Assembly: GCA_934130045.1 (NCBI GenBank)
Contig: CAKOXI010000002.1
Span: 728 to 64,727 of the forward strand
Source of the DNA: an uncultured Bacilli bacterium
Lineage (GTDB): Bacteria > Bacillota_I > Bacilli_A > RF39 > UBA660
Direction: 5' to 3'
Length of the DNA stretch: 64,000 nt
Part shown: in pieces, positions 17,561 through 39,287 of the stretch
Layout: every line of letters starts with the position of its first letter
Position numbering within the stretch: the stretch's first letter is position 1
Position numbers and translations under genes: made by a program
Notes under the pieces: generated by a model
Databases searched by the model: none
The model's input: only the letters and a program-made list of their open reading frames with translations
What the model was told of the DNA's origin: nothing

Positions 17561-17715
17561 ATTATCTCCTCCTTTATTTTTTCTCCCTATGCCATATAAT
17601 TTTACTATATTATTTTAAATAAGTCAAATATTTATAATATTTTTCTTAAATTTCTATTATTTATTTTTTATAATTATTGATTGTGCTATAATAAATGTAT
17701 GATTGGAGGGGAATT

Positions 17716-20640
17716 ATGTATACTCAATTTTATATAAAAACTGAAAATTCTTTGTTAACAAGTATGATAAAAATATCAGATTTAGTAATACAAGCAAAGA
17801 AGTTAGGTTATAATTCTCTTTCAATAACTGATAATAATATGTATGGTGTTATGGATTTTTATCATGAATGTATTAAAAATAATATTAAACCAATTATTGG
17901 ATTAGAGGTTAATATTGATGATTGTAAATTTTTACTATATTGCATTAATTATAATGGATATAAAAATTTAATTAAAATTGCTACTTCTCAAAGTGATAAT
18001 ACCCTAAATTTTGATGTTTTAAAAAAATATTCTAGCGATTTAATTTGTATTGTTTTATATGAATCATTAAATCATTTATATTCTAAATTAAAAGAAATTT
18101 ATCTTAATATATATATAGGTTATAAAAATATAAGTGAAAGAAATAATTTAGATGGCGATAATTTATTGTATGTTAATGAAACTTTGTATTTAAATAAAGA
18201 TGATTCTAAGTATTATAAATATTTAGTTGGAATAAGAGATAGTTTAATAATTGATAATATTAAAATTAATAAAGATAAAAATTTTTTATATCCCATTAGT
18301 GTGCTAGAAAAATTGCCAATTAAAGATTTAGAAAATAATAAAAAAATTACTGATATGTGTAATTTAAAATTGGAATTTAATTTAGATTTATTACCAATAT
18401 ATGATTGCCCAAATAGTTTAACTAGTTATGATTATTTAAAAAAACTATGTATTGATAATTTAAATAATTTATTTGATAATAATATTCCTAGTGATTATTT
18501 AAAAAGACTAAATTATGAAATTGATGTTATTAATAAAATGGGTTTTTGTAATTATTTTTTAATTGTCTATGATTATGTTAAATTTGCTAAAGAAAATGAT
18601 ATATTAGTTGGACCCGGTAGGGGTAGTGCTGCAGGTTCATTAGTAGCTTATTCTTTAAATATTACCACAATTGATCCTTTAAAATATAATCTTTTATTTG
18701 AAAGATTTTTAAATCCAGAACGTATAAGTATGCCAGATATTGATATTGATTTTGAATTTGATAAAAGAGATATGGTAATTGAATATTGCGTACAAAAGTA
18801 TGGAAAAAAGTGTGTTGCGCCAATTATTACTTTTGGAACATTAGGTTCAAAACAGGTTATTCGTGATGTTGCAAGAGTTATGGATATAGATATATCACTT
18901 GTTGATAATTTGTCTAAATTAATTGATTCTAAAATTAACTTAAAGGAAAATTATGAAAAAAATATTAAAATTAGAAATATGCTTAAAATAAATAGAGAAC
19001 TATTTGATTTATATAAAATCGCATATAAATTTGAAGGACTTAAAAGACATAAAACTGTTCATGCCGCTGGTATTGTTATGTCAAGAATTCCTTTAGATGA
19101 TGTAATTCCCTTAGATATTCATGATAATTATTATTTGACAGGATATTCTATGGAATATTTAGAAAAAATTGGATTACTTAAAATGGATTTTTTAGCTTTA
19201 AAAAACTTATCCATAATTTCAGATATAATAAAGCAAATAAATGTATTTGATAGTAATATTAATTTTGATAATATTCCACTTAATAATGAATTGGCTATTG
19301 AAATTTTTAAAAATGGTTATACCTTAGGAATTTTTCAATTTGAATCAACGGGAATGATTAATTTTTTAAAAAAATATGAAGTTACAAATTTTGATGATAT
19401 TGTTGCAGCTATAGCTTTATATAGACCTGGACCAATTAAAAATATTGATACTTATATAAATAGAAAAAAGGGATTAGAAAATATAGATTATTTGCACCCA
19501 GATTTAGAAAAAATTTTAAAACCTACTTATGGTATTATTGTATATCAGGAACAAATTATGCAAATAGCTGTTACTTTAGCAAATTTTTCTTTGGGAGAAG
19601 CTGATATTTTAAGAAAGGCAATGAGTAAAAAAAATACTGATTTGCTATTATCTTTAAAAGAAAAATTTATAAATCAAAGTATTAAAAATGGGTATGATAA
19701 GGAAATTGTTATTAAAATTTATGATTTTATTTTAAAGTTTGCCGAATATGGTTTTAATAAATCCCATTCTGTTTCTTATGCTATGATAGCTTATAAAATG
19801 GCTTATTTAAAAGCAAACTATAGAGAATATTTTATGAGGAGTTTATTGTCGGGTGTAATAGGTAGTGAACAAAAAACTAAAGATTATATATACGAATGTA
19901 AATTGCTTGGAATAAATTTACTTTTACCTGATATTAATTTAAGTATTGATAATTATTTTATTTATAATAATAATTTATTATTACCATTAAATTCTATAAA
20001 AGGAATTGGTACTTCTATTGTTAAAATAATTTTAGATGAAAGAAAAAATGGTAAATTTATTGATATTTATGATTTTATCAAAAGAGTATATAATAAAAAT
20101 ATAAATAAACAAATATTACTAAATTTAAATGATGCTGGTTGTTTTTTATCACTTGGAATTAGTAGAAAAAAATTTGAAAATAATATTGATCTAATAATAA
20201 ATTATGGAGAAATAGGAGAATTATTAGATGATGATTCTCTGAAACCTTTATTAAAGGATTGTGTAGAATTTTCTAATAAGGATATAATGAAAAAAGAATT
20301 AGATGTATTTGGATTTTATTTGAGTAAACATCCTGTTACAGAGTATAAATTAAAATATAAAGCTATTGATTTAAAAGATATATCATTATATTTTGATAAA
20401 AATATTGATTTAATTATATATGTTGATAAAATTAGAGTAATTAAAACAAAGAATAATGATGAGATGTGCTTTATATCCGGTAGTGATGAAAGCTCAAATA
20501 TTGAAATAGTTTTATTTCCTAAAGTATATGATTTAAATAAAAATATAGAAATAGGAAATGTTTTAAAAATTTTTGGAAAAGTCGAGAAAAGATTTGATGA
20601 ATATCAAGTGGTTGCTAGTGAAATAGAAGTTATTCAATAA
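17716..20640 (+). CDS. dnaE: DNA polymerase III alpha subunit (DnaE-type)
   Basis: PHP N-terminus (YTQFYIKTENSLL..., SITDNNMYG), GPGRGSAAGSLVAYSLNIT, PDIDIDFE, HAAGIVMS, FNKSHSVSYA, C-terminal OB region. The ATG at 17716 follows SD ggagggg. Confidence 0.92.
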   Translation: MYTQFYIKTENSLLTSMIKISDLVIQAKKLGYNSLSITDNNMYGVMDFYHECIKNNIKPIIGLEVNIDDCKFLLYCINYNGYKNLIKIATSQSDNTLNFDVLKKYSSDLICIVLYESLNHLYSKLKEIYLNIYIGYKNISERNNLDGDNLLYVNETLYLNKDDSKYYKYLVGIRDSLIIDNIKINKDKNFLYPISVLEKLPIKDLENNKKITDMCNLKLEFNLDLLPIYDCPNSLTSYDYLKKLCIDNLNNLFDNNIPSDYLKRLNYEIDVINKMGFCNYFLIVYDYVKFAKENDILVGPGRGSAAGSLVAYSLNITTIDPLKYNLLFERFLNPERISMPDIDIDFEFDKRDMVIEYCVQKYGKKCVAPIITFGTLGSKQVIRDVARVMDIDISLVDNLSKLIDSKINLKENYEKNIKIRNMLKINRELFDLYKIAYKFEGLKRHKTVHAAGIVMSRIPLDDVIPLDIHDNYYLTGYSMEYLEKIGLLKMDFLALKNLSIISDIIKQINVFDSNINFDNIPLNNELAIEIFKNGYTLGIFQFESTGMINFLKKYEVTNFDDIVAAIALYRPGPIKNIDTYINRKKGLENIDYLHPDLEKILKPTYGIIVYQEQIMQIAVTLANFSLGEADILRKAMSKKNTDLLLSLKEKFINQSIKNGYDKEIVIKIYDFILKFAEYGFNKSHSVSYAMIAYKMAYLKANYREYFMRSLLSGVIGSEQKTKDYIYECKLLGINLLLPDINLSIDNYFIYNNNLLLPLNSIKGIGTSIVKIILDERKNGKFIDIYDFIKRVYNKNINKQILLNLNDAGCFLSLGISRKKFENNIDLIINYGEIGELLDDDSLKPLLKDCVEFSNKDIMKKELDVFGFYLSKHPVTEYKLKYKAIDLKDISLYFDKNIDLIIYVDKIRVIKTKNNDEMCFISGSDESSNIEIVLFPKVYDLNKNIEIGNVLKIFGKVEKRFDEYQVVASEIEVIQ

Positions 20641-20710
20641 TTTTAAATGAATTTATTGATTAAAATTACAAAAAATGGTATTCTAAATAATAGAGGATGT
20701 GGTAATAAAT

Positions 20711-22495
20711 ATGTTAACTATTTATAAAAATGCAAGCAAAAAATTGATAAAAACTTTAAAAAAAGGTTTTACATTAATAGAATTATTAGCAGTAATAGTA
20801 ATACTTGCAATAATAGCGTTAATTGCGGTACCACAAGTAATTAAAATATTAAATAAGGCAAAATTATCGTCAGCTGAGGACTCTGTATATGGAATAGTAA
20901 AATCAGTAAATACTTATGTAGCTAATTTTATGTTAAAAAATGATGGTAATTATCCTGATGAAGATTTAGAATTTTCCTGTGGAAAAGAAGGGTGCAATTT
21001 AGATAACAGTTTGGAAGGTTATAATTTAAATAATTTAAAATCATTGAGTTTTAAGGGTGTTAAACCATCTTCTGGTACTGTGAAGGTAAGTAATAATGGA
21101 AAGAATGTATATGTAGATGATTTAATAATAAATGGATTTAGATGTATATATCCAAATAGTGAAGGAAAAGCAAAATGTTATACAGATGAGCAACTTAAAA
21201 ACATAATAAAAATAAATAATATTGGTTTGACACCAGGTGTAGATAGTATAAAGGTAGTATTAAGTGTGAGTGGAAATATAAGTAAATACGAATATAGTAT
21301 TGATAATGAAAACTTTTTTGAAAGTGATACTAATACATATACATTTAATGGTTTAGAATCCAACAAAAAATATACAATATATGTAAGGATATCTAATGAT
21401 GATAATAAAGTAGAAGATAGTAAAGATACAATTACATTATCATTAAGTGCACCAGAAATAGAAGCAGAAAATGAACTTATTTGGACACAAAGTAAAAAAG
21501 TAACAATAAAGTATCCTGAAGGAGAAAGTTTAGAATATAGTTATATAATAAAATCTCTAGATGGAGCTACAGTAAAAAAAGAAGAAACACAAGTAATAGA
21601 TAGAATATTTAATTTTGAATTAACAGAACAGGCAATTGTAGTAGCAATAGTAAAAGACAAAAATAATAAAGAATCATATACAAAAACTATAACATATATA
21701 GATTCAACTGCTCCAACAAGTGCAACATTTGAGACAACATCAACAAGTAATAGTATAAAAGTAACAGCAAGTGGAACAGATAATGAGTCAGGAATAACAC
21801 ATTATCAATTCAGTAAAGATGGAGGAAATGCATGGTTACCAAGTACACCACAAACATCAAATACATATACATTTGATGGATTAACAAGTGGAAGTTATAA
21901 TATAATGGTAAGAGTATATAATGGAACATATGAAAGTGGTGGAAGGTTATATAAAGATAGCGATACTAAAACGATTACAACATTAAGACCACCTACGATA
22001 AATTCATTTACAGCTACATCTGGTTCTACAAGTGGCTATAATACAACTTCAGTTACTTTAACAGCTATAGCTACAAGTGAAGTAGGTATTTCTAAGTATG
22101 TATTTTATCAAAGTGGAACTGTAATAAAAACTGTTGAAACATCAGCTAGTAACGCAACAGTACAAGTTACTTCACTTGGTACCACTAGTTATCAATTTAC
22201 TGTGGTAGTATATGATATTGATGGTAATAGTAGTTCATCATCATTGACAGAAAATTGCAGTAAATCTGCATCATATGGTTGTACTACTGTATACACATGT
22301 ACTGGAACAGGTAGAAAATATAGTGTTGGTGGTGGTACACCGTGTAGCAGTTGTAGTGATGTTGCTACTAGTGCAGGTAATTATGCATATAATTCATGTA
22401 TGTCTAGTGGTGGTAGTCAAAGTTCTTGTTCTGCCCAAGCTAACAGTGCGGCAGCGGAAGCAGGTCAAAAGTGTTCTTCAAGCTGTTGTGGATAG
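20711..22495 (+). CDS. Prepilin-type N-terminal cleavage/methylation domain protein fused to FN3-like repeats and a Cys/Ser/Gly-rich tail
   Basis: Class III signal KKG|FTLIELLAVIVILAIIALIAVPQ with Glu at +5. At least three FN3-like modules (…NTYTFNGLESNKKYTIYVR…, …HYQFSKDGGNAW…NTYTFDGLTSGSYNIMVRV…, …ISKYVFYQSG…YQFTVVVYD…). Ten Cys in the last roughly 80 aa. Confidence 0.75.
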   Translation: MLTIYKNASKKLIKTLKKGFTLIELLAVIVILAIIALIAVPQVIKILNKAKLSSAEDSVYGIVKSVNTYVANFMLKNDGNYPDEDLEFSCGKEGCNLDNSLEGYNLNNLKSLSFKGVKPSSGTVKVSNNGKNVYVDDLIINGFRCIYPNSEGKAKCYTDEQLKNIIKINNIGLTPGVDSIKVVLSVSGNISKYEYSIDNENFFESDTNTYTFNGLESNKKYTIYVRISNDDNKVEDSKDTITLSLSAPEIEAENELIWTQSKKVTIKYPEGESLEYSYIIKSLDGATVKKEETQVIDRIFNFELTEQAIVVAIVKDKNNKESYTKTITYIDSTAPTSATFETTSTSNSIKVTASGTDNESGITHYQFSKDGGNAWLPSTPQTSNTYTFDGLTSGSYNIMVRVYNGTYESGGRLYKDSDTKTITTLRPPTINSFTATSGSTSGYNTTSVTLTAIATSEVGISKYVFYQSGTVIKTVETSASNATVQVTSLGTTSYQFTVVVYDIDGNSSSSSLTENCSKSASYGCTTVYTCTGTGRKYSVGGGTPCSSCSDVATSAGNYAYNSCMSSGGSQSSCSAQANSAAAEAGQKCSSSCCG

Positions 22496-22556
22496 TTTTT
22501 TTCATTAATATTTAATAATTTATTGGTAATACTAATAATATAATAAATTTAAAATA

Positions 22557-22582
22557 CACTTTCAAAAGAAGGTGTTTTTTTA
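22557..22582 (+). terminator. Intrinsic terminator
   Basis: 8-bp stem acactttc/gaaggtgt (one G-U pair), aaaa loop, T7 run. Confidence 0.75.
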
Positions 22583-22689
22583 GTACGAGTATTTTTAAAT
22601 ACAAAATTATAATTATAAATCTTATAAAAATTGATTTTTATTACTCTAATAAATAATATTTATGGTAAAATATTTATGGAGATGATTAT

Positions 22690-24207
22690 ATGAAACCATT
22701 AGTTTTATGTATTTTAGATGGATGTGGAATTAGAAAAGAAAGTGATGGTAATGCATTTTTAAATGCTAATAAACCAACATTTGATATGTTGATGAAAAAG
22801 TACCCACATTCAATTTTAAGGGCAAGTGGACCAGCTGTTGGACTACCTGAAGGTCAAATGGGAACTAGTGAAGTAGGACACATGAATTTAGGTTCAGGAA
22901 GAGTTGCATTACAACCCTTACAAGCTATTACTGAATCAATTAAAAATAAGTCATTTTTTGAAAATGAAAAAATTTTAAAAGTATTAAATCATGTTAAAAA
23001 AAATAATTCAAATTTACATATTATGGGACTTTTATCTGATGGAGGGGTTCATTCCCATATTAATCATTTATTAAGTTTATTAGATATGTGTAAAATGAAT
23101 GAAGTTAAAAATGTTTATATTCATGTTTTTACCGATGGTAGAGATACCTATGAAAAAAGTGCTAAAAAGTATTTAGATGTTCTTTCTAATAAAATTCAAG
23201 AATTAAATCTTGGTGTAATCGCAACTATTTCAGGTAGATATTATGCGATGGATAGAGATAATAATTTTGATAGATTAAAGCTTGCTTATGATGCTATTTG
23301 TTATGGAATTGGGAAAAAATATAATAATTATGATGAATTAATTGAAGATAATTATAATAATGGAATAAATGATGAATTTTTTGTACCAGGTATTATAAAT
23401 AGTTGTCCAGTTAAAGAAAATGATGGTATTATTACATTTAATTTTAGAAAAGATCGCTTAAGAGAATTATTTACATGTTTTACCAATGCATCAGAATATG
23501 ATGAGATGGCAAAACAAAAAAATTTAAATTTAATTGATTATAAGAATTTAGAGGTTTTAACAATGTTTCCTGTAACAGAAACAGTTAAGGCACCACATGC
23601 CTTTAATGACTTAGACTTAAAAAATATTTTAGTTGATTATCTACACAAATTTAAAAAAAGTCAATTAAGACTTTCAGAAACAGAAAAATTTCCCCATGTA
23701 ACATTCTTTTTTGATGGTGGTAGGGAAGTTTCTTATGATGATATGAAAAAAATAATTGTACCATCACCTAAAGTTGCAACATACGATTTAAAACCTTCAA
23801 TGAGTGTATATGAAGTAACTGATGAGTTTTTAAAAGAAGCAGCAAATTTTGATGTTGTAATTATGAATTTGGCGAACGGAGATATGGTAGGACATACAGG
23901 TAATTATGATGCTGCTAAACAAGCTGTTGAAGATATGGATAAATGTTTAGCTAAAATTTATGATGAAGTTATGAAATTAGAGGGTATTTTAATCATTATA
24001 GCAGATCATGGAAATTGTGATATGATGTGGGATAGTAATCATAATCCTGTAACAAGTCATACAACTAATCCAGTGCCATGTATTATAACTAAAGAAAATA
24101 TTGAGTTAGAAGATGGTAAATTAGCTGATATTGCGCCAACAATGTTATATCTTTTAAATTTACCAATTCCTAGTGAAATGACTGGTAAGGTTTTAATAAA
24201 AGAATAA
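22690..24207 (+). CDS. gpmI: 2,3-bisphosphoglycerate-independent phosphoglycerate mutase
   Basis: LCILDGCG, TSEVGHMNLGSGR, LSDGGVHSH, FTDGRDT, ETEKFPHVTFFFDGG, ANGDMVGHTG, ADHGN. Confidence 0.93.
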   Translation: MKPLVLCILDGCGIRKESDGNAFLNANKPTFDMLMKKYPHSILRASGPAVGLPEGQMGTSEVGHMNLGSGRVALQPLQAITESIKNKSFFENEKILKVLNHVKKNNSNLHIMGLLSDGGVHSHINHLLSLLDMCKMNEVKNVYIHVFTDGRDTYEKSAKKYLDVLSNKIQELNLGVIATISGRYYAMDRDNNFDRLKLAYDAICYGIGKKYNNYDELIEDNYNNGINDEFFVPGIINSCPVKENDGIITFNFRKDRLRELFTCFTNASEYDEMAKQKNLNLIDYKNLEVLTMFPVTETVKAPHAFNDLDLKNILVDYLHKFKKSQLRLSETEKFPHVTFFFDGGREVSYDDMKKIIVPSPKVATYDLKPSMSVYEVTDEFLKEAANFDVVIMNLANGDMVGHTGNYDAAKQAVEDMDKCLAKIYDEVMKLEGILIIIADHGNCDMMWDSNHNPVTSHTTNPVPCIITKENIELEDGKLADIAPTMLYLLNLPIPSEMTGKVLIKE

Positions 24208-24226: not shown

Positions 24227-26569
24227 ATGATAATAAAATTATTACTTATATTATTATTTAATATAATATATAGTTTAAATAATTATAGTAATTTAATAGA
24301 TATTGTTATAATTAACATTATCCTTTTTTTTATTGAATTTATAATAATAAATGAAAAAATAATAATAAGTAAAAAACACATATTAATTTCTCTAATTATA
24401 TCTATAATTATTTTATTTATAAATAAAGCTAATTTTATATATGGTTATGATAGTAAAAATATAGAGATAATAGGAAATGACTTTACCATTGATTCACTTT
24501 ATATAAATGATTCAAAAGTTAAGTTAAATGATTATGAAATTTATAATCAAAATCCGTATGATATTTATAATAAATTAACAGAATATTATAAATTAGAAAA
24601 TATTAATTATTATTATTTTAATACTGAAAAAGCTCATAGTATAGTTATTAATTTTGAAAAGGATAAACAAGATTATGATGTATTAATCAATGATGAAAAA
24701 ATAAAAATTAATAAGAGTACTGTAGATAAAAATTCAGATTATTACAAAGTTTATGATAATTATTATACTTATAAAATAGATAATATAAATTATTCTAATA
24801 ATAAAAAAATTATTAATATTATAATTAGCTTTATATTTATTAATATTATTATATTATCAGTTATAAACTCGATTAATAAAAAAGATGTATCTAAATTATT
24901 TTTATTATTTAGTTTATTTATATTAGAATTTAATAGTTATATTAATATATCCGTAATTTACAAAAGTATTTTATTTATATTATTTTATTTTATATCAAGA
25001 ATAATTAGAAAAAATATTAATATAGAATTATTAAGAAAAAAATTTTTAAAAGAATATTTAGCTAGTTTAATTATAAGTTTTCAATTTATAGGTACTATTT
25101 TAATGGATAACAAAATAAATATAAATTTAATAATTTTATATTTATTATTAAGTATTTTAATATTTATTGTAATAATAACTTTAGAAAATTTAAAATTAAA
25201 TTATATTTTAGTAAACAAAAATCAAAATAGTACTTTAAAGACAAAAATAATTTTATTTATGATACCATTAATTGCTTGCATATCATATTTAATTATTTAT
25301 AAAACATTTATATTAACAACTGATGGTAGTATGCAACTTAATGAAATAAAAAATAATTTAATTACTAATTGGCATCCATTTTTTCATACTGTAATTTTAA
25401 AGATTTTTTATAATATTAACAATAATTTAAATTTATTTATTATTGTAAGAATTGTAATAGTGAGTTTATTAATATCAAGTATTTCTACATATTTTATAGA
25501 TAAATATGTAAATAAAAAAATGATTTATATATTAGTTTTTATAATTTGTATAAATCCTATTTTTAGTATTTATATTATATCTTTATTAAAAGATGTTGAT
25601 TTTATAATATTTTTTATAATGTTAACTTTTTTAATTATTAAATACCTTAATAATGACTTTAAAGTCATGGATTATTTTTATTTACTAATATCACTAATAT
25701 TTATAGGTATGTTTAGGCACAATGGAATTTATATTGCGGTTATAATGATCATTGCTCTCTTTATAATTTTTTATATAAAAAAGGATATTAAGTTATTAAT
25801 AAGTATGATAATTTGTTCATTCTTTTTAATATTTTTAAATACATTTTTTTATAATTATTTAGAAATAAAACCAGGTATAAAAAATGTTGATATTGCGGCT
25901 TTAGCTCATGGATTGCAAACTATTTATATAGAAAATAATGATTGTAAAATAAAAGAAATATTTACTGATTATAGTTCTTTTGAGTTAAAAGACAATTATT
26001 CTAAATATAATATAGATGTATTATTACATTATAATAATATTCAATTAAGAAATATGGATATAAATAAGTTAGAATTTATGAACATTTATTTAAAAAATTT
26101 ATTTAAGTATCCTAATATTTTAATTAAAGATAGATTAAATGGAACAAATATATTATGGGATATATTTAGTAGTGATAAAATTCAAACTTATAATTATCAA
26201 ATAATAGAAAACGAATTTGGTTATAGTAATTATGAAAAAAATAAAATAAAAATATCTCAAAATAAATTATCGAACATTATAGAAAAAATAATTATGTACG
26301 AATCCACAAATAAATTTTTAAATTTTATATTTTTTAGAAGTGGTATATATTTATCTCTTATGATTATTTTAACAGTTAGTAATTGGAATAAAAAAAATTT
26401 ATTTATTTTGTTTCCAACAATTATTTATATATTAACTTTATTTATATCATTACATCATCAATCATATAGATATGTAATGTTTATGCCATTTATTTTTATA
26501 ATATATTTATTAAATATTTTGGCAAATAATAAACAAAATGTAAATAAATGTATAGTAGTAAGGAAATAG
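24227..26569 (+). CDS. Large polytopic membrane protein (780 aa), function unknown; GT-C-like glycosyltransferase is only a guess
   Basis: More than 12 predicted TM helices with two soluble inserts. Only 19 nt downstream of gpmI, with no terminator between. No motif I can assign with confidence. Confidence 0.5.
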   Translation: MIIKLLLILLFNIIYSLNNYSNLIDIVIINIILFFIEFIIINEKIIISKKHILISLIISIIILFINKANFIYGYDSKNIEIIGNDFTIDSLYINDSKVKLNDYEIYNQNPYDIYNKLTEYYKLENINYYYFNTEKAHSIVINFEKDKQDYDVLINDEKIKINKSTVDKNSDYYKVYDNYYTYKIDNINYSNNKKIINIIISFIFINIIILSVINSINKKDVSKLFLLFSLFILEFNSYINISVIYKSILFILFYFISRIIRKNINIELLRKKFLKEYLASLIISFQFIGTILMDNKININLIILYLLLSILIFIVIITLENLKLNYILVNKNQNSTLKTKIILFMIPLIACISYLIIYKTFILTTDGSMQLNEIKNNLITNWHPFFHTVILKIFYNINNNLNLFIIVRIVIVSLLISSISTYFIDKYVNKKMIYILVFIICINPIFSIYIISLLKDVDFIIFFIMLTFLIIKYLNNDFKVMDYFYLLISLIFIGMFRHNGIYIAVIMIIALFIIFYIKKDIKLLISMIICSFFLIFLNTFFYNYLEIKPGIKNVDIAALAHGLQTIYIENNDCKIKEIFTDYSSFELKDNYSKYNIDVLLHYNNIQLRNMDINKLEFMNIYLKNLFKYPNILIKDRLNGTNILWDIFSSDKIQTYNYQIIENEFGYSNYEKNKIKISQNKLSNIIEKIIMYESTNKFLNFIFFRSGIYLSLMIILTVSNWNKKNLFILFPTIIYILTLFISLHHQSYRYVMFMPFIFIIYLLNILANNKQNVNKCIVVRK

Positions 26570-27051: not shown

Positions 27052-27492
27052 ATGATTCAAATGAAAAAAAACGGTTTTACGTTGATAGAATTAATTGGTA
27101 TCATAGCAATAATATCATTAATAGGACTTGTTACAATTCCACAAATGATGTCATCTATGACTAAAGGTAATGAAGAAAAAATATCACAGTTTAAAAGAGA
27201 TATGGAATCAGCAGCTCAGTCATATGTTGAAAATAATTGGAATGAATATGATTTTAAAACTAAAATTATTATAGGTATTAGTAATGAGCAAAAATATTGT
27301 ATACCACTTTCTGATTTAATAGATAATGATTATGTTGATAAATTTGAAATAGATCCAACAACAAATACACCTTTAAATGATGCTTTCGGAAAATATGTAA
27401 TGATTGAAAATATATCAAAAGTTGAATCAAAATATAATTTTTCATATACATATGTAAATGTTAATGATGCAAATGATTCAAGTAAATGTTAG
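27052..27492 (+). CDS. Small prepilin-type (ComGC/pseudopilin-like) protein
   Basis: KKNG|FTLIELIGIIAIISLIGLVTIPQ class III signal. About 140 aa. The start may be the ATG at 27061. Confidence 0.75.
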   Translation: MIQMKKNGFTLIELIGIIAIISLIGLVTIPQMMSSMTKGNEEKISQFKRDMESAAQSYVENNWNEYDFKTKIIIGISNEQKYCIPLSDLIDNDYVDKFEIDPTTNTPLNDAFGKYVMIENISKVESKYNFSYTYVNVNDANDSSKC

Positions 27493-27501
27493 GAGAATAA
27501 A

Positions 27502-28686
27502 ATGAAAAAAACAATAGAAGATTATAATTTATATGATAAAAGAGTAATAATAAGATGTGATTTTAATGTACCAATTAAAAATGGAATAATCATGGACGAT
27601 AATAGAATAATAAAAAGTTTAGATACTATTAAGTATGCTTTAAATAATGGAGCTAAGGTTATTTTAATGTCTCATTTAGGTAGAATAAAAGAATTTAGTG
27701 ATTTAGAAAAATATTCATTAGAACCTGTTGCAAAAAGATTAGAAGAATTGCTTAATATGAAAGTTACATTTGTTAATGAAACAAGAGGAAAATTATTAGA
27801 AAAAGCAGTAAAAAAATTAAAACCAGGTAATGTTTTATTAATGCAGAATACAAGATACGAAGATTTAAATGAAAAAGGCGAAAGTAATAACGATATAACA
27901 CTAGCTTCTTATTGGGCTAGTTTAGGTGATATTTATATAAATGATGCCTTTGGTACATGCCATAGAGCACATGCTTCCAATGTAGGAATATCTTCTCTTT
28001 TACCAAATGGTATTGGTTTTTTAGTTGAAAAAGAACTTAAAATTTTAGAAAAAAGTATAAGTAATCCAAATAGACCATTTGTTGTTATTTTAGGTGGAGC
28101 TAAAGTTAGTGATAAAATAGGGGTAATAGAAAATTTAGTAAAAATTGCTGACTATATTTTAATTGGTGGTGGAATGTCTTATACATTTTTATCAGCACTT
28201 GGTTATAATGTAGGAAAATCACTAGTTGACAAAGAAAATATTGCATTTTGTAAAAAAATATTAGATAATTATTCTAGTAAAATATTATTACCAGTTGATA
28301 ATGTTGTTTCTAAAGTAATAAGCAATGATGCTTTTGTTAGAATAGTTAATTCTGATCAAATATTATCTGATGATATTGCCTTAGATATCGGACCGCAAAC
28401 TATAAAAAAATATTCTGAATATTTATTAAATAGTAAAACTGTAATATGGAATGGACCAGTTGGATATTCTGAATTAAAAAAATTTGAACATGGTACTAAA
28501 TCATTATTTGAATTTCTTTCAAAATTAAATTCAACAGTAATTATAGGTGGTGGTGATACTGCTGCTAGTGCTATAAATTTAGGATATGGTAATTCATTTA
28601 CTCATATATCTACGGGCGGTGGCGCAACATTAGAATTATTAGAGGGAAAAAAACTACCAGGTATTGAAAGTATAAATAATAAGTAA
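27502..28686 (+). CDS. pgk: Phosphoglycerate kinase
   Basis: RCDFNVP, MSHLGR, LMQNTRYE, NDAFGTCHRAHAS, LGGAKVSDKI, GGGDTAA, STGGGATLE. Confidence 0.95.
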   Translation: MKKTIEDYNLYDKRVIIRCDFNVPIKNGIIMDDNRIIKSLDTIKYALNNGAKVILMSHLGRIKEFSDLEKYSLEPVAKRLEELLNMKVTFVNETRGKLLEKAVKKLKPGNVLLMQNTRYEDLNEKGESNNDITLASYWASLGDIYINDAFGTCHRAHASNVGISSLLPNGIGFLVEKELKILEKSISNPNRPFVVILGGAKVSDKIGVIENLVKIADYILIGGGMSYTFLSALGYNVGKSLVDKENIAFCKKILDNYSSKILLPVDNVVSKVISNDAFVRIVNSDQILSDDIALDIGPQTIKKYSEYLLNSKTVIWNGPVGYSELKKFEHGTKSLFEFLSKLNSTVIIGGGDTAASAINLGYGNSFTHISTGGGATLELLEGKKLPGIESINNK

Positions 28687-29729: not shown

Positions 29730-30964
29730 TGAGAATAGGAATTTTTACAGATAGTTATCCACCTTATATCAATGGTGTTTCTACTAGTATTGTTATGTTA
29801 AAAAATGCCCTTGAAAAAAAAGGACATGAAGTTTTTGTAGTAACAGTAAATGCAGAAAAACTATCATATAAATATGAGAATGAAAATAAAGTTATTAGAA
29901 TCCCTGGTATTCCTACTGGAATATATGATTATAGATTAACTGGCATTTATCCCTTAAGAGCAGTTGATAAAATAAAAAAGTGGAATTTAGATATTATACA
30001 TTCGCAAACAGAATTTGGAGTAGGAACTTTTGCTAGAATTATAGCAAAACAGTTAGATATACCACTTGTTCATACATACCATACTATGTATGAGGATTAT
30101 GTTCATTATATAACAAAAGGTTATTTTAATGGAACAAGTAAAAAAATTGTTGAATATTTAACAAAGTTTTATTGTGATAAAACCGCAACAGAGTTAATAG
30201 TTCCAACTGAAAAAACATATAAATTATTTAAAGAAAAATATAAATTTGATAGAAATGTACATATAATACCTACTGGTATAGAGATAGAAAGATTTTATTT
30301 ATCAAATTGTTCTATAAAAAAAATAAATCAATTAAGAAATGACTATAATATAAAACCATCTGATTTTGTAATTTTATTTGTTGGTAGATTAGGTGAGGAA
30401 AAAAGTGTTGATATTTTGATTGAATCACAAGATTATTTTAGAAAAATTAATAAACAATCTAAACTTTTATTAGTTGGTGATGGACCAGATATGGACAAAT
30501 ATAAAAAGTTGGTAAAAAAATTAAAACTATCCGATAATGTTATTTTTACTGGTAAGGTTCCGTGGGAAGAAGTACCTTGTTATTATCAATTAGCTAATGT
30601 TTTTGCGACAGCTTCTAGAACAGAAACTCAAGGACTTACAGTAATAGAAGCTCTAGCTGCATCACTACCGGTTGTGGCTGCAAATGATCCAAGTTTTATG
30701 TCAATTGTAGTTGATGATTTAAATGGATATTTGTTTAAAAATAAAAGACAATATAAAAAAATAATTGAAAAGTTGATGTCAGAACCTGAAAAACTTAAAA
30801 AATTATCAAATCAAGCTAAAATTAGTTCCGAAAGATATTCTTCTAGGTACTTTGCTGAAAGGGTTTTAGATGTATATAATTTGGCTCTATCAGGTAGGAA
30901 AAAAAGTCAGAATTTTTTTGAGAAGATGAAAAACGTAATAAAAAGAGGTATTCATGATAAGTAA
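29729..30964 (+). CDS. GT4 glycosyltransferase, diacylglycerol glucosyltransferase-like (glycolipid synthase)
   Basis: MRIGIFTDSYPPYINGVSTSI N-terminus as in alpha-monoglucosyl-DAG synthases. Also GRLGEEKS and the E(x7)E region TETQGLTVIEALA. Confidence 0.8.
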   Translation: MRIGIFTDSYPPYINGVSTSIVMLKNALEKKGHEVFVVTVNAEKLSYKYENENKVIRIPGIPTGIYDYRLTGIYPLRAVDKIKKWNLDIIHSQTEFGVGTFARIIAKQLDIPLVHTYHTMYEDYVHYITKGYFNGTSKKIVEYLTKFYCDKTATELIVPTEKTYKLFKEKYKFDRNVHIIPTGIEIERFYLSNCSIKKINQLRNDYNIKPSDFVILFVGRLGEEKSVDILIESQDYFRKINKQSKLLLVGDGPDMDKYKKLVKKLKLSDNVIFTGKVPWEEVPCYYQLANVFATASRTETQGLTVIEALAASLPVVAANDPSFMSIVVDDLNGYLFKNKRQYKKIIEKLMSEPEKLKKLSNQAKISSERYSSRYFAERVLDVYNLALSGRKKSQNFFEKMKNVIKRGIHDK

Positions 30965-31679
30965 ATATGTATTTGCAAATTTAAAGATGAATATGACTGC
31001 AAAGGAAGTAAGTGAATATTTAAAAATTATAAATGATAAAATGTTTATTTCTAATGTAGTAATTTTTCCTACTAGTATTTATATTCCATATTTCTTAAAT
31101 CAAAATTATGATGTTGGTATACAAAATATATTTTATGAAAATAATGGACCATATACTGGAGAAGTATCTCCTTCTCAAGCTAGAAGTATGGGAATAAAAT
31201 ATGCGATAGTTGGTCATAGTGATAGAAAAATATTAGGTGAAGATGGAACTATTATTAATAAAAAGTTAAAAAAATGTTTAGAAAATAAAATTAAAGTTAT
31301 TTTATGTGTTGGTGAGACATTAGAACAAAGAGAAATGTTAAAAACGGATAAGATTTTAAAGAAGCAACTTCTTGAAGCATTAAGAGGAATTGAAAAAAAA
31401 GATTTAAAAAATATTTTTATAGCTTATGAACCAGTATGGGCAGTTGGAACTAACGAATTACCCCTAAATAGAGAAATAAATGATTGTGTAGAATATATTA
31501 AAAATATATGTAAAACATATTTAGATGGTATTCCATTTGTTTTATATGGTGGAAGCATAAATGAAAAAAATATAAAAAAGCTAAATGAAATTAATAATAT
31601 TGATGGTTTTTTAATTGGAGCTTCATCATGTAATATAGAAAAATTTTTAAAAATAATTGACATAATTGAAAATAAATAA
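30954..31679 (+). CDS. tpiA: Triosephosphate isomerase
   Basis: ANLKMN (catalytic Lys), VGHSDRK (His), CVGETLEQRE, AYEPVWAVGT (Glu), GGSI. Start overlaps the GT4 end by 11 nt. Confidence 0.9.
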   Translation: MISKYVFANLKMNMTAKEVSEYLKIINDKMFISNVVIFPTSIYIPYFLNQNYDVGIQNIFYENNGPYTGEVSPSQARSMGIKYAIVGHSDRKILGEDGTIINKKLKKCLENKIKVILCVGETLEQREMLKTDKILKKQLLEALRGIEKKDLKNIFIAYEPVWAVGTNELPLNREINDCVEYIKNICKTYLDGIPFVLYGGSINEKNIKKLNEINNIDGFLIGASSCNIEKFLKIIDIIENK

Positions 31680-36039: not shown

Positions 36040-36597
36040 ATGAATTTTATTAAAAACGATGTTAAAATATTTATACTTTCTGGTAAGGCTCGTGCAGGAA
36101 AAGATACAACGGCTTTATTTATTAAAGAATATTATGAGAAAATGGGTGAAAAGGTTATAACTTTACAGTACTCAACTTATCTAAAAGAATATGCTAAAAA
36201 AATAACTGGTTGGGATGGAACTGATGAAAATAAACCACGTCAATTACTTATTGATTTAGGAACTAATTTAATTAGAGGGAAAATCGACAAATATTTATTT
36301 ATTAATAGAATGTTAGAAGATATAAATATTTATTCATATTTTTTTAATGTTATTATTATAAGTGATGCAAGATTAGTAGAGGAACTAGATATTCCAAAAG
36401 AAAAATTTGAAAATGTAAAACTTATAAATATTAAAAGACCTAATTATGAAAATGGTCTTACAGAAGAACAAAAGAATTCACTAACAGAAACAGCGTTAAA
36501 TAGTTATTCTAATTATGATTATGAAATTATAAATGATAAAGATATAGAATCATTGAATAAAAAAATAGTAGAAATGATTAAGGAGATGGATCGATGA
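36040..36597 (+). CDS. P-loop NTPase (dNMP-kinase-like), function uncertain
   Basis: Walker A ILSGKARAGKDT, about 185 aa. Its end overlaps the alaS start (ATGA). The ATG at 36040 follows SD aggag. Confidence 0.5.
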   Translation: MNFIKNDVKIFILSGKARAGKDTTALFIKEYYEKMGEKVITLQYSTYLKEYAKKITGWDGTDENKPRQLLIDLGTNLIRGKIDKYLFINRMLEDINIYSYFFNVIIISDARLVEELDIPKEKFENVKLINIKRPNYENGLTEEQKNSLTETALNSYSNYDYEIINDKDIESLNKKIVEMIKEMDR

Positions 36598-39287
36598 AAA
36601 AATTAACAGGAAATGAAATCAGAAAAATATGGTGTGAATTTTGGAAATCTAAAGGACATACTATTGTTTCAAGTGCATCATTAATTCCAAATGATGATCC
36701 TACAATTTTGTGGATTAATGCCGGTGTAACACCTTTAAAAAAATACTTTGATGGTAGTGAAATTCCCGAAAATAGAAGAATTGCTAATATACAAAAGTGT
36801 ATAAGAACAAATGATATTGAAAATGTTGGATTAACATCACGTCATCAAACATTTTTTGAAATGATGGGAAATTTTTCAATTGGTGATTATTTTAAAAAAG
36901 AGGCAATTACTTGGGCATATGAATTTTTAACAGGTAGTGAATGGTTAGATATACCTAAAGAAAAACTATATATGACAATTTATTCAGAAGATAGGGTTGC
37001 TTATAATACATGGAGAGAGTTAGGAGTTGAAAAGGAACATATTATTCTTTTATCTACTAATTTTTGGGAGATAGGTCCAGGTCCTAGTGGACCAGATAGT
37101 GAAATATTCTTTGATAGAGGAGAAGAATATGATGAAGAAAAAATTGGAATTAGATTATTAAAAGAAGAAATTGAAAATGATAGATATGTTGAAATTTGGA
37201 ACAATGTATTTAGTCAATATAATGCTACTCCTGGTTTAGATAGAAGTAATTATCCAGAACTACCTCATAAGAATATAGATACAGGTATGGGGTTAGAGAG
37301 AATGGCTTCTATTTTACAAGAAGTTCCAACTAATTTTGATACAGATTTATTTATGCCAATAATAAATAAAATTTCTAGTATTTGTGGAATTAAATATGAA
37401 GGACAAAAAGAATTTAAAATTATTGCTGATCATGTAAGAACTGTTACATTTGCTCTTGCAGATGGTGCAAATTTTGGAAATAATGGTCGAGATTATATAT
37501 TAAGAAGATTATTAAGAAGAGCAATTAGATATGGTAAAAAGTTAGGAATCAATAGGATATTCACAAGTGAATTAATACCAGTAATCATTGAAATAATGAA
37601 AGATGCTTATCCATATTTAAATTCAAAATTAGATATGATAGTAAAAAAGATTAATACAGAAGAAGAATTATTTAATCATACACTTGCTAATGGTGAAAAA
37701 AAATTAAATGAATTATTTTCAAGTAATAATAAAATAATAAGTGGAATAGATGCCTTTAAGTTATATGATACATATGGATTTCCTTTTGAATTAACTGAAG
37801 AATATGCTAAAGAAAATGGTTTTTCTGTTTCAAGAGAAGAATTTGATAAATGTATGAAAGAACAAAAAGAAATGGCACGTAATGCAAGAGAAAATTATAG
37901 TAGTATGAATTTACAAAATGAGGCTTTACTTGATTTTAATGCTGAAAGCATTTTTGTGGGTTATGATAACCTAGACGTAGAAACTAAAATTTTAAAATTG
38001 TATGATGGTAATAATTTTGTGGATAGTATTACAGATGAAGGATATATAGTTTTAGAAAAAACTCCATTTTATGCAGAATCAGGTGGTCAAGTATCTGATA
38101 AGGGAATTATTACTGATGGAAATATAAAAATTGATGTTATAAGCAGTTTTAAAGGACCAAATAAGCAACATTTTCATCAAGTTAAATTTGTAGGTACAAT
38201 TAATGTTGGTGATAATGTAACAGCATCTGTTGATAAGAATTTTAGATTAAATGTTTCAAAAAACCATTCAGCAACTCATTTATTACAAAAATCATTACAA
38301 CAAATTTTAGGTAGTGAAGTTCATCAAGCTGGATCAAAAGTTGATGATAAACGTCTTAGATTTGATTTTAAGTATGATGGAACAATAAGTGATGAACAAA
38401 TTATTAAGGTTGAACAGTTAGTTAATGACAAAATTAAGAGTGATGTTCTTACAAATATTCAAAATATGGATATAGAAGAAGCTAAAAAAATGGGAGCTAT
38501 GGCATTGTTTGGCGAAAAATATGGAAAAATAGTAAGAGTTGTAAATATCGTTGATTCAACAGAATTATGTGGTGGAACTCATGTTACAAAAAGTAGTGAT
38601 ATAGATTCATTTGCAATAATATCCGTTGAATCAAAAGGACAAAATGTATATAGAATTGAAGCCACTACTGGTGATAATATTGTAAAGGAACTATTTGAAC
38701 AGATTAAACCTTATAATGAAGATATGATGAAATTATTAAATAAGGCTAAAACAATAGTAGAGGAAGCTAATGATTTAGGTATAACCTTAGAATTTAATTT
38801 TAAAATAAATAATGATAAACCTATGAAATATGCTGATATTGTATTTAATTTAAATGAATTAAATCAACTAAAAAAGGCAGTATCAGATTTAGAAAAAAAT
38901 TATAATAAAGAAAAATCAAAAAAAATGTTAGAACATTTAGATGAATTTGTAGGTTTGACAAAAGTTATAAACAATATTAATACATTAATAATAAAAGTAG
39001 AAAATTGTGAAGTATCTGTTTTAAAGGAATTTTTAGATGTACTACAAAATAAGGTAAATGGATTTGTATTTATTGCTAATGTAAATGATTCAAGTGTTAA
39101 TTATTTAGCTAAGTGCTCAAAAGAATTAATGGACAAAATAAATTGTGGAGCTATTGTTAAAGAAATATCTATTAAGTCAAATGGAAATGGTGGAGGAAGT
39201 AAAAACTTCGCATCAGGTGGTGGTAGTGATACTACTAATATTGACAATATATTAATAGATGTATCTAATATTATTGAAAATTTATGA
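36594..39287 (+). CDS. alaS: Alanine--tRNA ligase
   Basis: FWKSKGH, NAGV, QKCIRTNDIENVG, RHQTFFEMMGNFSIGDYFK, GLERMASILQ, editing-domain HSATHLL and CGGTH, C-terminal DHHA1-like region. Confidence 0.95.
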   Translation: MKKLTGNEIRKIWCEFWKSKGHTIVSSASLIPNDDPTILWINAGVTPLKKYFDGSEIPENRRIANIQKCIRTNDIENVGLTSRHQTFFEMMGNFSIGDYFKKEAITWAYEFLTGSEWLDIPKEKLYMTIYSEDRVAYNTWRELGVEKEHIILLSTNFWEIGPGPSGPDSEIFFDRGEEYDEEKIGIRLLKEEIENDRYVEIWNNVFSQYNATPGLDRSNYPELPHKNIDTGMGLERMASILQEVPTNFDTDLFMPIINKISSICGIKYEGQKEFKIIADHVRTVTFALADGANFGNNGRDYILRRLLRRAIRYGKKLGINRIFTSELIPVIIEIMKDAYPYLNSKLDMIVKKINTEEELFNHTLANGEKKLNELFSSNNKIISGIDAFKLYDTYGFPFELTEEYAKENGFSVSREEFDKCMKEQKEMARNARENYSSMNLQNEALLDFNAESIFVGYDNLDVETKILKLYDGNNFVDSITDEGYIVLEKTPFYAESGGQVSDKGIITDGNIKIDVISSFKGPNKQHFHQVKFVGTINVGDNVTASVDKNFRLNVSKNHSATHLLQKSLQQILGSEVHQAGSKVDDKRLRFDFKYDGTISDEQIIKVEQLVNDKIKSDVLTNIQNMDIEEAKKMGAMALFGEKYGKIVRVVNIVDSTELCGGTHVTKSSDIDSFAIISVESKGQNVYRIEATTGDNIVKELFEQIKPYNEDMMKLLNKAKTIVEEANDLGITLEFNFKINNDKPMKYADIVFNLNELNQLKKAVSDLEKNYNKEKSKKMLEHLDEFVGLTKVINNINTLIIKVENCEVSVLKEFLDVLQNKVNGFVFIANVNDSSVNYLAKCSKELMDKINCGAIVKEISIKSNGNGGGSKNFASGGGSDTTNIDNILIDVSNIIENL

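Follow-up and report, generated by a model that had tools for sequence, protein, structure and literature searches.

Organization of the locus

The window analysed here is a stretch of 64,000 nucleotides from an uncultured Bacilli bacterium (positions 728–64,727 of contig CAKOXI010000002.1, which is contig C2 of the genome referred to as G000, an assembly of 1.25 Mb that is 94.5% complete and has 24% GC). The gene of interest lies on its forward strand at 20711–22495, between dnaE (17695–20640) upstream and gpmI (22690–24207, recognised by Metalloenzyme and iPGM_N Pfam matches) downstream. An initial annotation had placed a frame of ~590 residues here, and the open reading frame (ORF) is indeed uninterrupted and 594 codons long. 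With a probability of roughly 0.7, its product is a modular type IV pilin and belongs to a dispersed family with exchangeable modules that would together supply a set of pilus-displayed adhesins.

The start at 20711 given in the initial annotation is right, as both the start codon (ATG) and the codons just after it (MLTI.K) recur in the long-leader paralogues on contigs C53, C21 and C13 of the same genome. A purine-rich ribosome-binding site precedes the ATG, and a candidate promoter lies upstream (Table 1); the corresponding block, TTGAT-N17-TGGTA(A/T)TCT, stands before eight of the nine genes that share the head of this protein (see below), the promoter of the ninth, on contig C25, being different. 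The promoter call rests on this conservation among paralogues, since the window promoter scores under the threshold of a consensus promoter scan. The gene had also been credited with its own terminator, and a terminator-like hairpin with a T-run is found behind it; the 3' flank is 87.5% conserved behind the C13 paralogue. The domain boundaries collected in Table 1 were drawn from profile matches and from an AlphaFold2 (AF2) model, for which confidence is given as the predicted local distance difference test (pLDDT).

Table 1. Features of the pilin gene and its surroundings, in window coordinates.
Feature	Residues	Position	Strand	Basis
Candidate promoter		20656–20684	+	-35 TTGATT (20656–20661), 17-nt spacer, extended -10 TGgTATTCT (20676–20684)
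Class III (prepilin) leader, ending in Gly19	1–19	20711–20767	+	N_methyl and TIGR02532 matches start at residue 17
Pilin α1 helix (mature F1, E5, P22)	20–76	20768–20938	+	AF2 helix 22–76
Globular pilin head	77–165	20939–21205	+	β-sheet; Cys90/Cys95 and Cys145/Cys156
Domain 1, FN3	166–245	21206–21445	+	fn3 28.6 bits (cut-off 25), best stretch 187–238; β-sandwich, pLDDT ~90
Domain 2, Ig-like β-sandwich	246–330	21446–21700	+	AF2 strands 249–327, pLDDT 91–96
Domain 3, FN3/Big_7	331–425	21701–21985	+	Big_7 36 bits (cut-off 24.1), best stretch 335–400; pLDDT 91–97
Domain 4, Ser/Thr-rich, Ig-like	426–512	21986–22246	+	AF2 strands 429–502
Tail part 1, short β-meander	513–543	22247–22339	+	Cys516, 524, 530; AF2 strands 507–540
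Tail part 2, α-helical hairpin	544–594 and stop codon	22340–22495	+	AF2 helices 545–565, 570–591
Alternative-frame ORF, 77 codons		22275–22508	+	Val/Leu-rich translation, no start context; compositional artefact
Terminator-like hairpin and T-run		22556–22585	+	8-pair stem (22556–22575), then TTTTTTT
Second prepilin gene, 146 aa (MIQMKKNG/FTLIELIG…)		27052–27492	+	N_methyl 22 bits (cut-off 21.2)

The pilin signal and head

The N-terminus reads MLTIYKNASKKLIKTLKKG before and FTLIELLAVIVILAIIALIAVPQ after the predicted cleavage site, that is, a polar leader ending in Gly and then Phe20 (F1 of the mature protein), Glu+5 and Pro+22. It had been described as a prepilin peptidase substrate, and both N_methyl (PF07963; 29.9 bits against a curated cut-off of 21.2) and TIGR02532 (32.9 against 16.3) match it above their curated cut-offs. 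Conservation of Gly-1 and Glu+5 among homologues, which the initial annotation had singled out as a check on pilin-type processing, speaks in favour of such processing: G-1, F+1 and E+5 are invariant in an alignment of 26 sequences, the whole of G19–A27 is invariant among these homologues, and the three positions are kept in 116 of 121 homologues, the remaining five being either truncated gene calls or variants with Ala at -1. Of the named equivalog models, ComGC and GspG score best over the N-terminal 60–80 residues; both stay far below their cut-offs (36.3 against 75 and 33.6 against 88.85) with matches that span the N-terminal 50–60 residues only.

Structure prediction points in the same direction. 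The AF2 model, for which the 26 homologues served as the alignment, has a mean pLDDT of 85 and, like all structures described here, is a prediction; in it residues 20–157 form a long α1 helix followed by a β-sheet in a pilin-like fold. The pLDDT is 69–86 for helix and strands together, 79–86 for the head strands (86–157) and < 50 for leader residues 1–20. All sequence matches in the PDB are pilins, namely geopilin, MshA, PilE1 and PilA. The two cysteine pairs noticed earlier in the head are present, and among the 26 homologues C156 is invariant and C145 nearly so.

Assembly machinery in the genome

No match to PilB, PilC or PilD was found on contig C2, so that the earlier statement that pilus machinery is missing holds for the window and its contig, but it fails for the genome. 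Contig C7 encodes a PilD of 255 residues with both expected domains (36397–37164, reverse strand; A24_N_bact 121.8 bits, Peptidase_A24 56.3 bits), so that the check for a prepilin peptidase, too, comes out in favour of pilin-type processing. Directly adjoining it is a gene for a PilC/GspF-like platform protein (C7:37175–38911; 578 residues, two T2SSF domains, GspF 280.8), and a PilB/GspE-like ATPase is encoded on contig C8 (5615–7066; T2SSE 429.6, GspE 496 and PilB 485 bits). The scores of the last two proteins are under the equivalog cut-offs and clearly inside the respective families. The other two T2SSE ATPases of the genome look Tad-like (contig C3, with TadB/C-like genes) and VirB11-like (contig C1), and a Tad/T4SS island was located. 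The machine thus described is minimal, as in Com-type systems of monoderms, which likewise consist of an ATPase, a platform protein and a peptidase.

The ATPase gene on C8 is divergent from two atypical pilin-like genes, one of which has the N-terminus MKINKFG/FMLVETLAV and lacks an N_methyl match.

As judged from sequence and model, then, the 594-residue protein is a type IV pilin: a signal, a predicted fold, a peptidase, and an ATPase with its platform protein were each found.

A four-domain stalk

Behind the head the model places a stalk of four β-sandwich (FN3/Ig) domains with pLDDT mostly > 90. At least three FN3-like modules had been noted; the fn3 and Big_7 matches above cut-offs agree with this, although the AF2 model shows four domains, not three. 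FN3 arrays (fibronectin, receptors) were matched by Foldseek with E-values of 1e-11 to 1e-9. The unit 'WTQSKTVTIKYP' of domain 2 is also present in homologues P0003, P0016 and P0032. Domain 4 gives a weak K319L-like PKD match (20.2 bits, under cut-off) and, wherever a paralogue in this genome carries the cysteine-rich tail, stands before it. With a pilin motif and at least one domain that is not specific to pilus biology, the predicted protein falls within the definition of modular pilins.

The cysteine-rich tail

The tail comprises the last 82 residues (513–594) and has ten cysteines between residues 516 and 593, the number given in the initial annotation. Its first part carries the motif E-x-C-S-K…C…Y-x-C-x-T-G-R, common to the paralogues on contigs C5, C28 and C13 and to P0002 and P0092. 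Its second part is predicted as a helical hairpin with seven cysteines (545, 548, 563, 573, 588, 592 and 593) arranged as C-x2-C-x14-C-x9-C-x14-C-x3-CC-G; the framework C-x2-C-x14-C-x6-9-C-x14-C-x2-3-CC is kept across copies, and the residues between the cysteines vary. The hairpin has a pLDDT of ~90 in the full model, and a model of the tail only agrees (81–91).

The cysteine positions are symmetric about the hairpin loop (563+573 = 1136, 548+588 = 1136, 545+592 = 1137), from which we infer that they may form three cross-hairpin disulfide staples (545–592, 548–588 and 563–573) in the predicted structure, with two further pairs predicted beside them. A different role, in which the tail would be a metal-binding module (with a Zn or Fe-S-type centre) or a redox module and not a disulfide-stapled binding tip, deserves mention, as C545/C548 and C588/C592/C593 (CxxC and CxxxCC) would come together where the predicted hairpin is open. 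Moreover, neither DsbB nor VKOR was found in the 94.5%-complete assembly, where a thioredoxin-like match stays sub-threshold, and a metal site would suit an anaerobe without Dsb enzymes. We nevertheless regard this role as improbable: loop-symmetric positions are what cross-hairpin disulfides would be expected to produce, conserved cysteine pairs are used in the pilin head as well, and hypervariable residues between the cysteines suit an exposed recognition surface more than a conserved metal site.

The initial annotation did not recognise this tail, and that remains the case in every library tried. No Pfam family matches residues 513–594; the one overlapping NCBIfam entry is at chance level (12.4 bits for a cut-off of 278, E 0.049); the best PDB hits are not significant either by profile (TcpB, E 0.65) or by fold, where Foldseek gives no match (best E 0.82). 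An exhaustive profile search of 1.84 billion representatives with the tail yielded four proteins, of which three have a pilin head or derive from fragmentary genes of that kind and one is a tail-only fragment of 120 residues, and a word-index search with the tail alone returned the strain orthologue only. In a search of the genomes of the bacterial family covering 200 other genera, the tail was found in this genus only, with four copies in this genome (on C2, at the end of contig C13, at C5:58325 and at C28:2591) and one in G002. The tail is therefore lineage-restricted, and no link to a known domain was found. We considered it as a C-terminal sorting signal or as a core peptide like those of ribosomally synthesized and post-translationally modified peptides and set both aside, as it has no hydrophobic segment, has a predicted fold and is borne by an exported carrier of 594 residues.

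A dispersed family of paralogues

Contrary to the initial annotation, the gene is not alone: a second prepilin gene lies 4.5 kb downstream in the window, and a motif scan found ~15 prepilin-type N-termini across the genome. Pilin loci recovered in the genome include a pair on contig C5 with a cysteine module and a pilin gene within the dcw cluster. Nine genes share the head GFTLIELLAVIVILAIIAL(I/V)…VPQVIKILN, on contigs C2, C13 (two copies), C21, C25, C36, C46, C49 and C53. This count is a minimum, with five of the nine cut by contig ends, and the true number may be higher because the assembly collapses at the repeat. The only head-only member is the C25 gene, which encodes 142 residues, with 44 of 55 α1 residues identical to the window protein, behind a consensus (TTGACA-type) promoter and a perfect Shine-Dalgarno sequence (AGGAGG); it is likely to encode the major pilin. 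Upstream of the paralogue at C13:10259, C13:10274–10440 (reverse strand) duplicates the 3' end of dnaE (~25 codons and the stop codon) together with the intergenic promoter of the window locus, and this paralogue therefore arose by segmental duplication of the dnaE-pilin junction.

The paralogue on contig C53 (locus L036), which has the same layout of head and first FN3 domain as the window gene, contains a run of nine G (at C53:3125) within its leader-peptide codons, the only G/C homopolymer of at least 8 in this 24%-GC genome. At the corresponding site the C21 paralogue (locus L035) has G6 (within C21:333–351) and the window gene GCAAGC. Length variants of the tract were found neither in a metagenome scan nor in 40 related genomes. 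The tract is a candidate for slipped-strand on/off switching of some copies.

Family, strains and module exchange

A full-length search returned 1616 homologues, all unnamed or generically named, with heads 55–70% identical and with FN3, Flg_new, DUF6273, RCC1, LRR or LamG modules behind them; family members are mostly large modular proteins (median 407 residues). Of 120 genera sampled from the bacterial family, 118 have matches to the head; these genomes measure 0.5–1.7 Mb and in several cases hold dozens of candidates.

One comparison is with the strain orthologue P0002 from human-gut metagenomes, which has the same YibE-L28-dnaE-pilin synteny. The flanks of the two genes are 98.3% identical, the 5' 1.26 kb of the gene 94.2% and domain 4 only 83%; after the 5' part P0002 has 618 extra nucleotides, corresponding to a module of ~206 residues that is also C-terminal in P0012, P0017 and P0034, and no blastn match extends across the tail hairpin and the 3' flank. 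The ratio of non-synonymous to synonymous substitution rates (dN/dS) is 0.21 for the head, 0.15–0.21 for the head with domain 1 and 0.15–0.29 for most of the length, indicating purifying selection on the head and on domain 1. The synonymous rate (dS) is ~0.17 at first, then 0.40 in domain 4 and 1.84 in the hairpin, a jump better explained by a divergent copy having replaced this part than by local point mutation.

Comparison with further copies gives a similar picture. Domain 4 is 90–92% identical to that of the C13 fragment and of P0123, whose hairpins are only 35–43% identical to the window hairpin; the hairpin of P0123 is in turn 82% identical to that of P0031, a protein without domain 4. 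At the DNA level, identity to the C13 end is 91.6% up to the tail, the tail is divergent, and the 3' flank is similar again. Variability of the tail among strains had been proposed as a check, and the hairpin proves hypervariable. We conclude from these alignments that C-terminal modules, above all the hairpin tips, are exchanged by recombination between paralogues and strains.

At the locus of the strain orthologue, a fragment of an ISL3-family transposase (L029:7568–7921) directly follows the pilin gene, in the place taken by the terminator and gpmI in the window; this fragment may have contributed to rearrangement at the 3' end. A conserved 'expression site' 3' of dnaE was also considered and rejected, because four other species of the genus carry unrelated genes there (the contig of a fifth ended too soon to tell). 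In two other species of the genus (L040, G002:C29; L041, G206:C13) this position is occupied by opposite-strand ORFs that encode long collagen-like triplet repeats (GATGPTGPQG).

That no pilin gene follows dnaE in these four species, together with the transposase fragment near the gene in the related strain, might be taken to mean that the window gene is a decaying or non-functional paralogue, an orphan copy between dnaE and gpmI. This is very improbable given its intact frame, the same gene in the same synteny in other samples, such as Hadza and ENA samples of the human gut, the low dN/dS over most of its length and the conserved promoter, ribosome-binding site and terminator.

Proposed role of the protein

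The 594-residue protein is most likely a stalk-and-tip protein displayed on a filament, an adhesin rather than an orphan, of which the tip would be the variable, exposed part. The initial annotation had suggested an adhesin of a pilus tip or pseudopilus, or else a surface-displayed protein borrowing the pilin signal, and the conserved motif, the encoded peptidase and the predicted pilin fold support that suggestion. We propose that the prepilin would insert in the membrane via its α1 helix, that PilD would cleave after Gly19 and methylate Phe20, and that the minimal machine of PilB and PilC, whose genes lie on other contigs, may polymerise the protein through α1 into a filament composed mainly of head-only pilins with almost identical α1 helices, for instance the C25 pilin. 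If each domain adds ~4 nm, by our estimate the stalk would hold the cysteine tip ~15 nm off the filament, where it would be the ligand-contacting, host-exposed end. Recombination that swaps the C-terminal modules would then yield a changeable set of pilus-displayed adhesins.

Several observations weigh against this proposal. The gene lies apart from the assembly genes; no PilM, PilN or PilO was found in the genome (the best match, 18 bits, is under cut-off), nor was a PilT-type ATPase; and the genome has more modular than head-only pilins, an unusual balance for a classical pilus. Furthermore, no recognisable ligand-binding domain is present in the protein, and neither DsbB nor VKOR was found as a candidate for oxidising the ten tail cysteines.

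Some of these points bear on the main rival explanation, in which the pilin head would be a display anchor, a stub or membrane tether without an extended pilus, similar to a T2SS-like pseudopilus or to the archaeal bindosome. In the bindosome, sugar-binding proteins bear prepilin signals. The prevalence of large modular members in the family, with one clear head-only pilin in this genome, would fit such an anchor, as would a machine limited to PilB, PilC and PilD and the scattering of pilin genes singly among housekeeping genes. We consider it rather unlikely all the same: α1 is near-invariant across paralogues, including Glu5 and Pro22, which are filament-packing residues for which weaker constraint would be expected in an anchor; the globular head is conserved and under purifying selection; and head-only pilins of the same type occur in this genome and its relatives. 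Filament assembly is thus favoured, but not proved, by the near-invariance of α1 and the selection on the head.

Display on a filament is also the role proposed for described modular pilins, which are widespread, with > 1,200 proteins in 264 architectures (Raynaud et al. 2021, PMC8179133). The same paper counts FN3 (IPR003961) with the 15 domains most often added to pilins and lists the pilin plus FN3 combination (PMC8179133). The modular pilins of Streptococcus sanguinis are PilB, a pilin with a vWA domain, and PilC, a pilin with a lectin domain (PMC8179133). Like these, the window protein has a pilin module (IPR012902/N_methyl) fused to domains foreign to pilus biology in a monoderm host, and here too the filament is proposed to present the binding module. 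Unlike them, it has a four-domain stalk and an undescribed cysteine tip instead of a single recognisable binding domain, and its gene lies outside a pil operon in a dispersed family of at least nine with module exchange. We found no experimentally studied FN3-type modular pilin in the literature.

The type IVb minor pilins CofB of enterotoxigenic Escherichia coli and TcpB of Vibrio cholerae consist of a pilin module followed by β-rich domains on a linker and are thought to be located at the tip (PMC8179133). The order of pilin module and β-rich domains is the same in the window protein, but no sequence or profile relationship to them exists beyond the TcpB hit reported above; moreover, CofB and TcpB are encoded by single-copy operon genes and have no hairpin framed by cysteines. 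Compared with Com and type II secretion pilins, the protein is four to five times longer and its gene is not in a comG-type operon.

In Neisseria pilE/pilS and in the variable surface families of Mycoplasma, paralogous copies recombine the exposed C-terminal part, and the N-terminal assembly part stays constant. The family described here resembles them in having multiple paralogues with a constant N-terminal part and an exchanged C-terminal part. Unlike the silent cassettes of pilE/pilS, the present paralogues appear complete with their own promoters, and whole domains are exchanged; and in contrast to both systems, no recombination machinery or guide sequence was identified, exchange being known here from comparison between strains and paralogues. 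It is possible, though we put it forward tentatively, that small-genome gut bacteria vary their surface through such pili and that this gene is one of the cassettes, the system having a constant assembly helix, swapped distal modules and, in some copies, poly-G switching. Such a system, varying by whole domains, would be a counterpart of Neisseria pilE/pilS or of the vsp system of Mycoplasma.

The many functions acquired by simple filaments are commonly attributed to modular pilins, of which few have been studied; to our knowledge, each of those is a single minor pilin within a pil operon. What appears to be new here, on the evidence of the genome comparisons, is a set of at least nine dispersed paralogues with near-identical α1 (eight of them with a common promoter), module exchange among them and an undescribed tip fold. 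The modular principle is here extended considerably: an uncultured gut lineage with a genome of ~1.2 Mb devotes a notable share of its coding capacity to dispersed pilins that combine a near-identical assembly helix with exchangeable outer modules. If a single filament displayed them, the organism would have in its pilus the main adjustable surface for contact with the host, mucus or partner cells. The cysteine-framed hairpin, with its conserved framework, hypervariable surface and lack of a described relative, is a candidate recognition module.

Composition of the 3' third and neighbouring genes

GC content increases toward the 3' end of the pilin gene, as the initial annotation had noted, but the different codon usage that it had also claimed is not found. 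GC at the third codon position (GC3) is 0.06–0.14 along the gene, 0.11 in the 3' third and 0.136 in the tail, as compared with 0.096 in dnaE, 0.123 in gpmI and 0.081 in pgk. Only GC at codon position 2 increases, to 0.61–0.73, which reflects a wealth of Ser, Thr, Gly, Ala and Cys residues (in the tail, Ser 23%, Gly 13%, Cys 12%, Ala 12% and Thr 10%). The 3' bias is a matter of amino-acid composition, and a foreign origin or foreign codon usage of the 3' third was rejected. The 77-codon alternative frame reported previously does exist and lies entirely within the biased tail-coding segment; we rejected it as a gene, its Val/Leu-rich string being a by-product of the biased composition.

Between gpmI and the gene for the 146-residue pilin lies an ORF for a very hydrophobic multi-pass membrane protein of 780 residues (24227–26569, forward strand) with no Pfam match at E ≤ 0.01, so that a role as a pilin glycosyltransferase, which was considered, is unsupported. 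More generally, between 22690 and 31679 the glycolytic genes gpmI, pgk (27502–28686) and tpiA (30954–31679) are interleaved with other genes, namely the small pilin gene, an ORF for a tail-anchored protein of 140 residues, the multi-pass membrane protein and a glycosyltransferase-like ORF.

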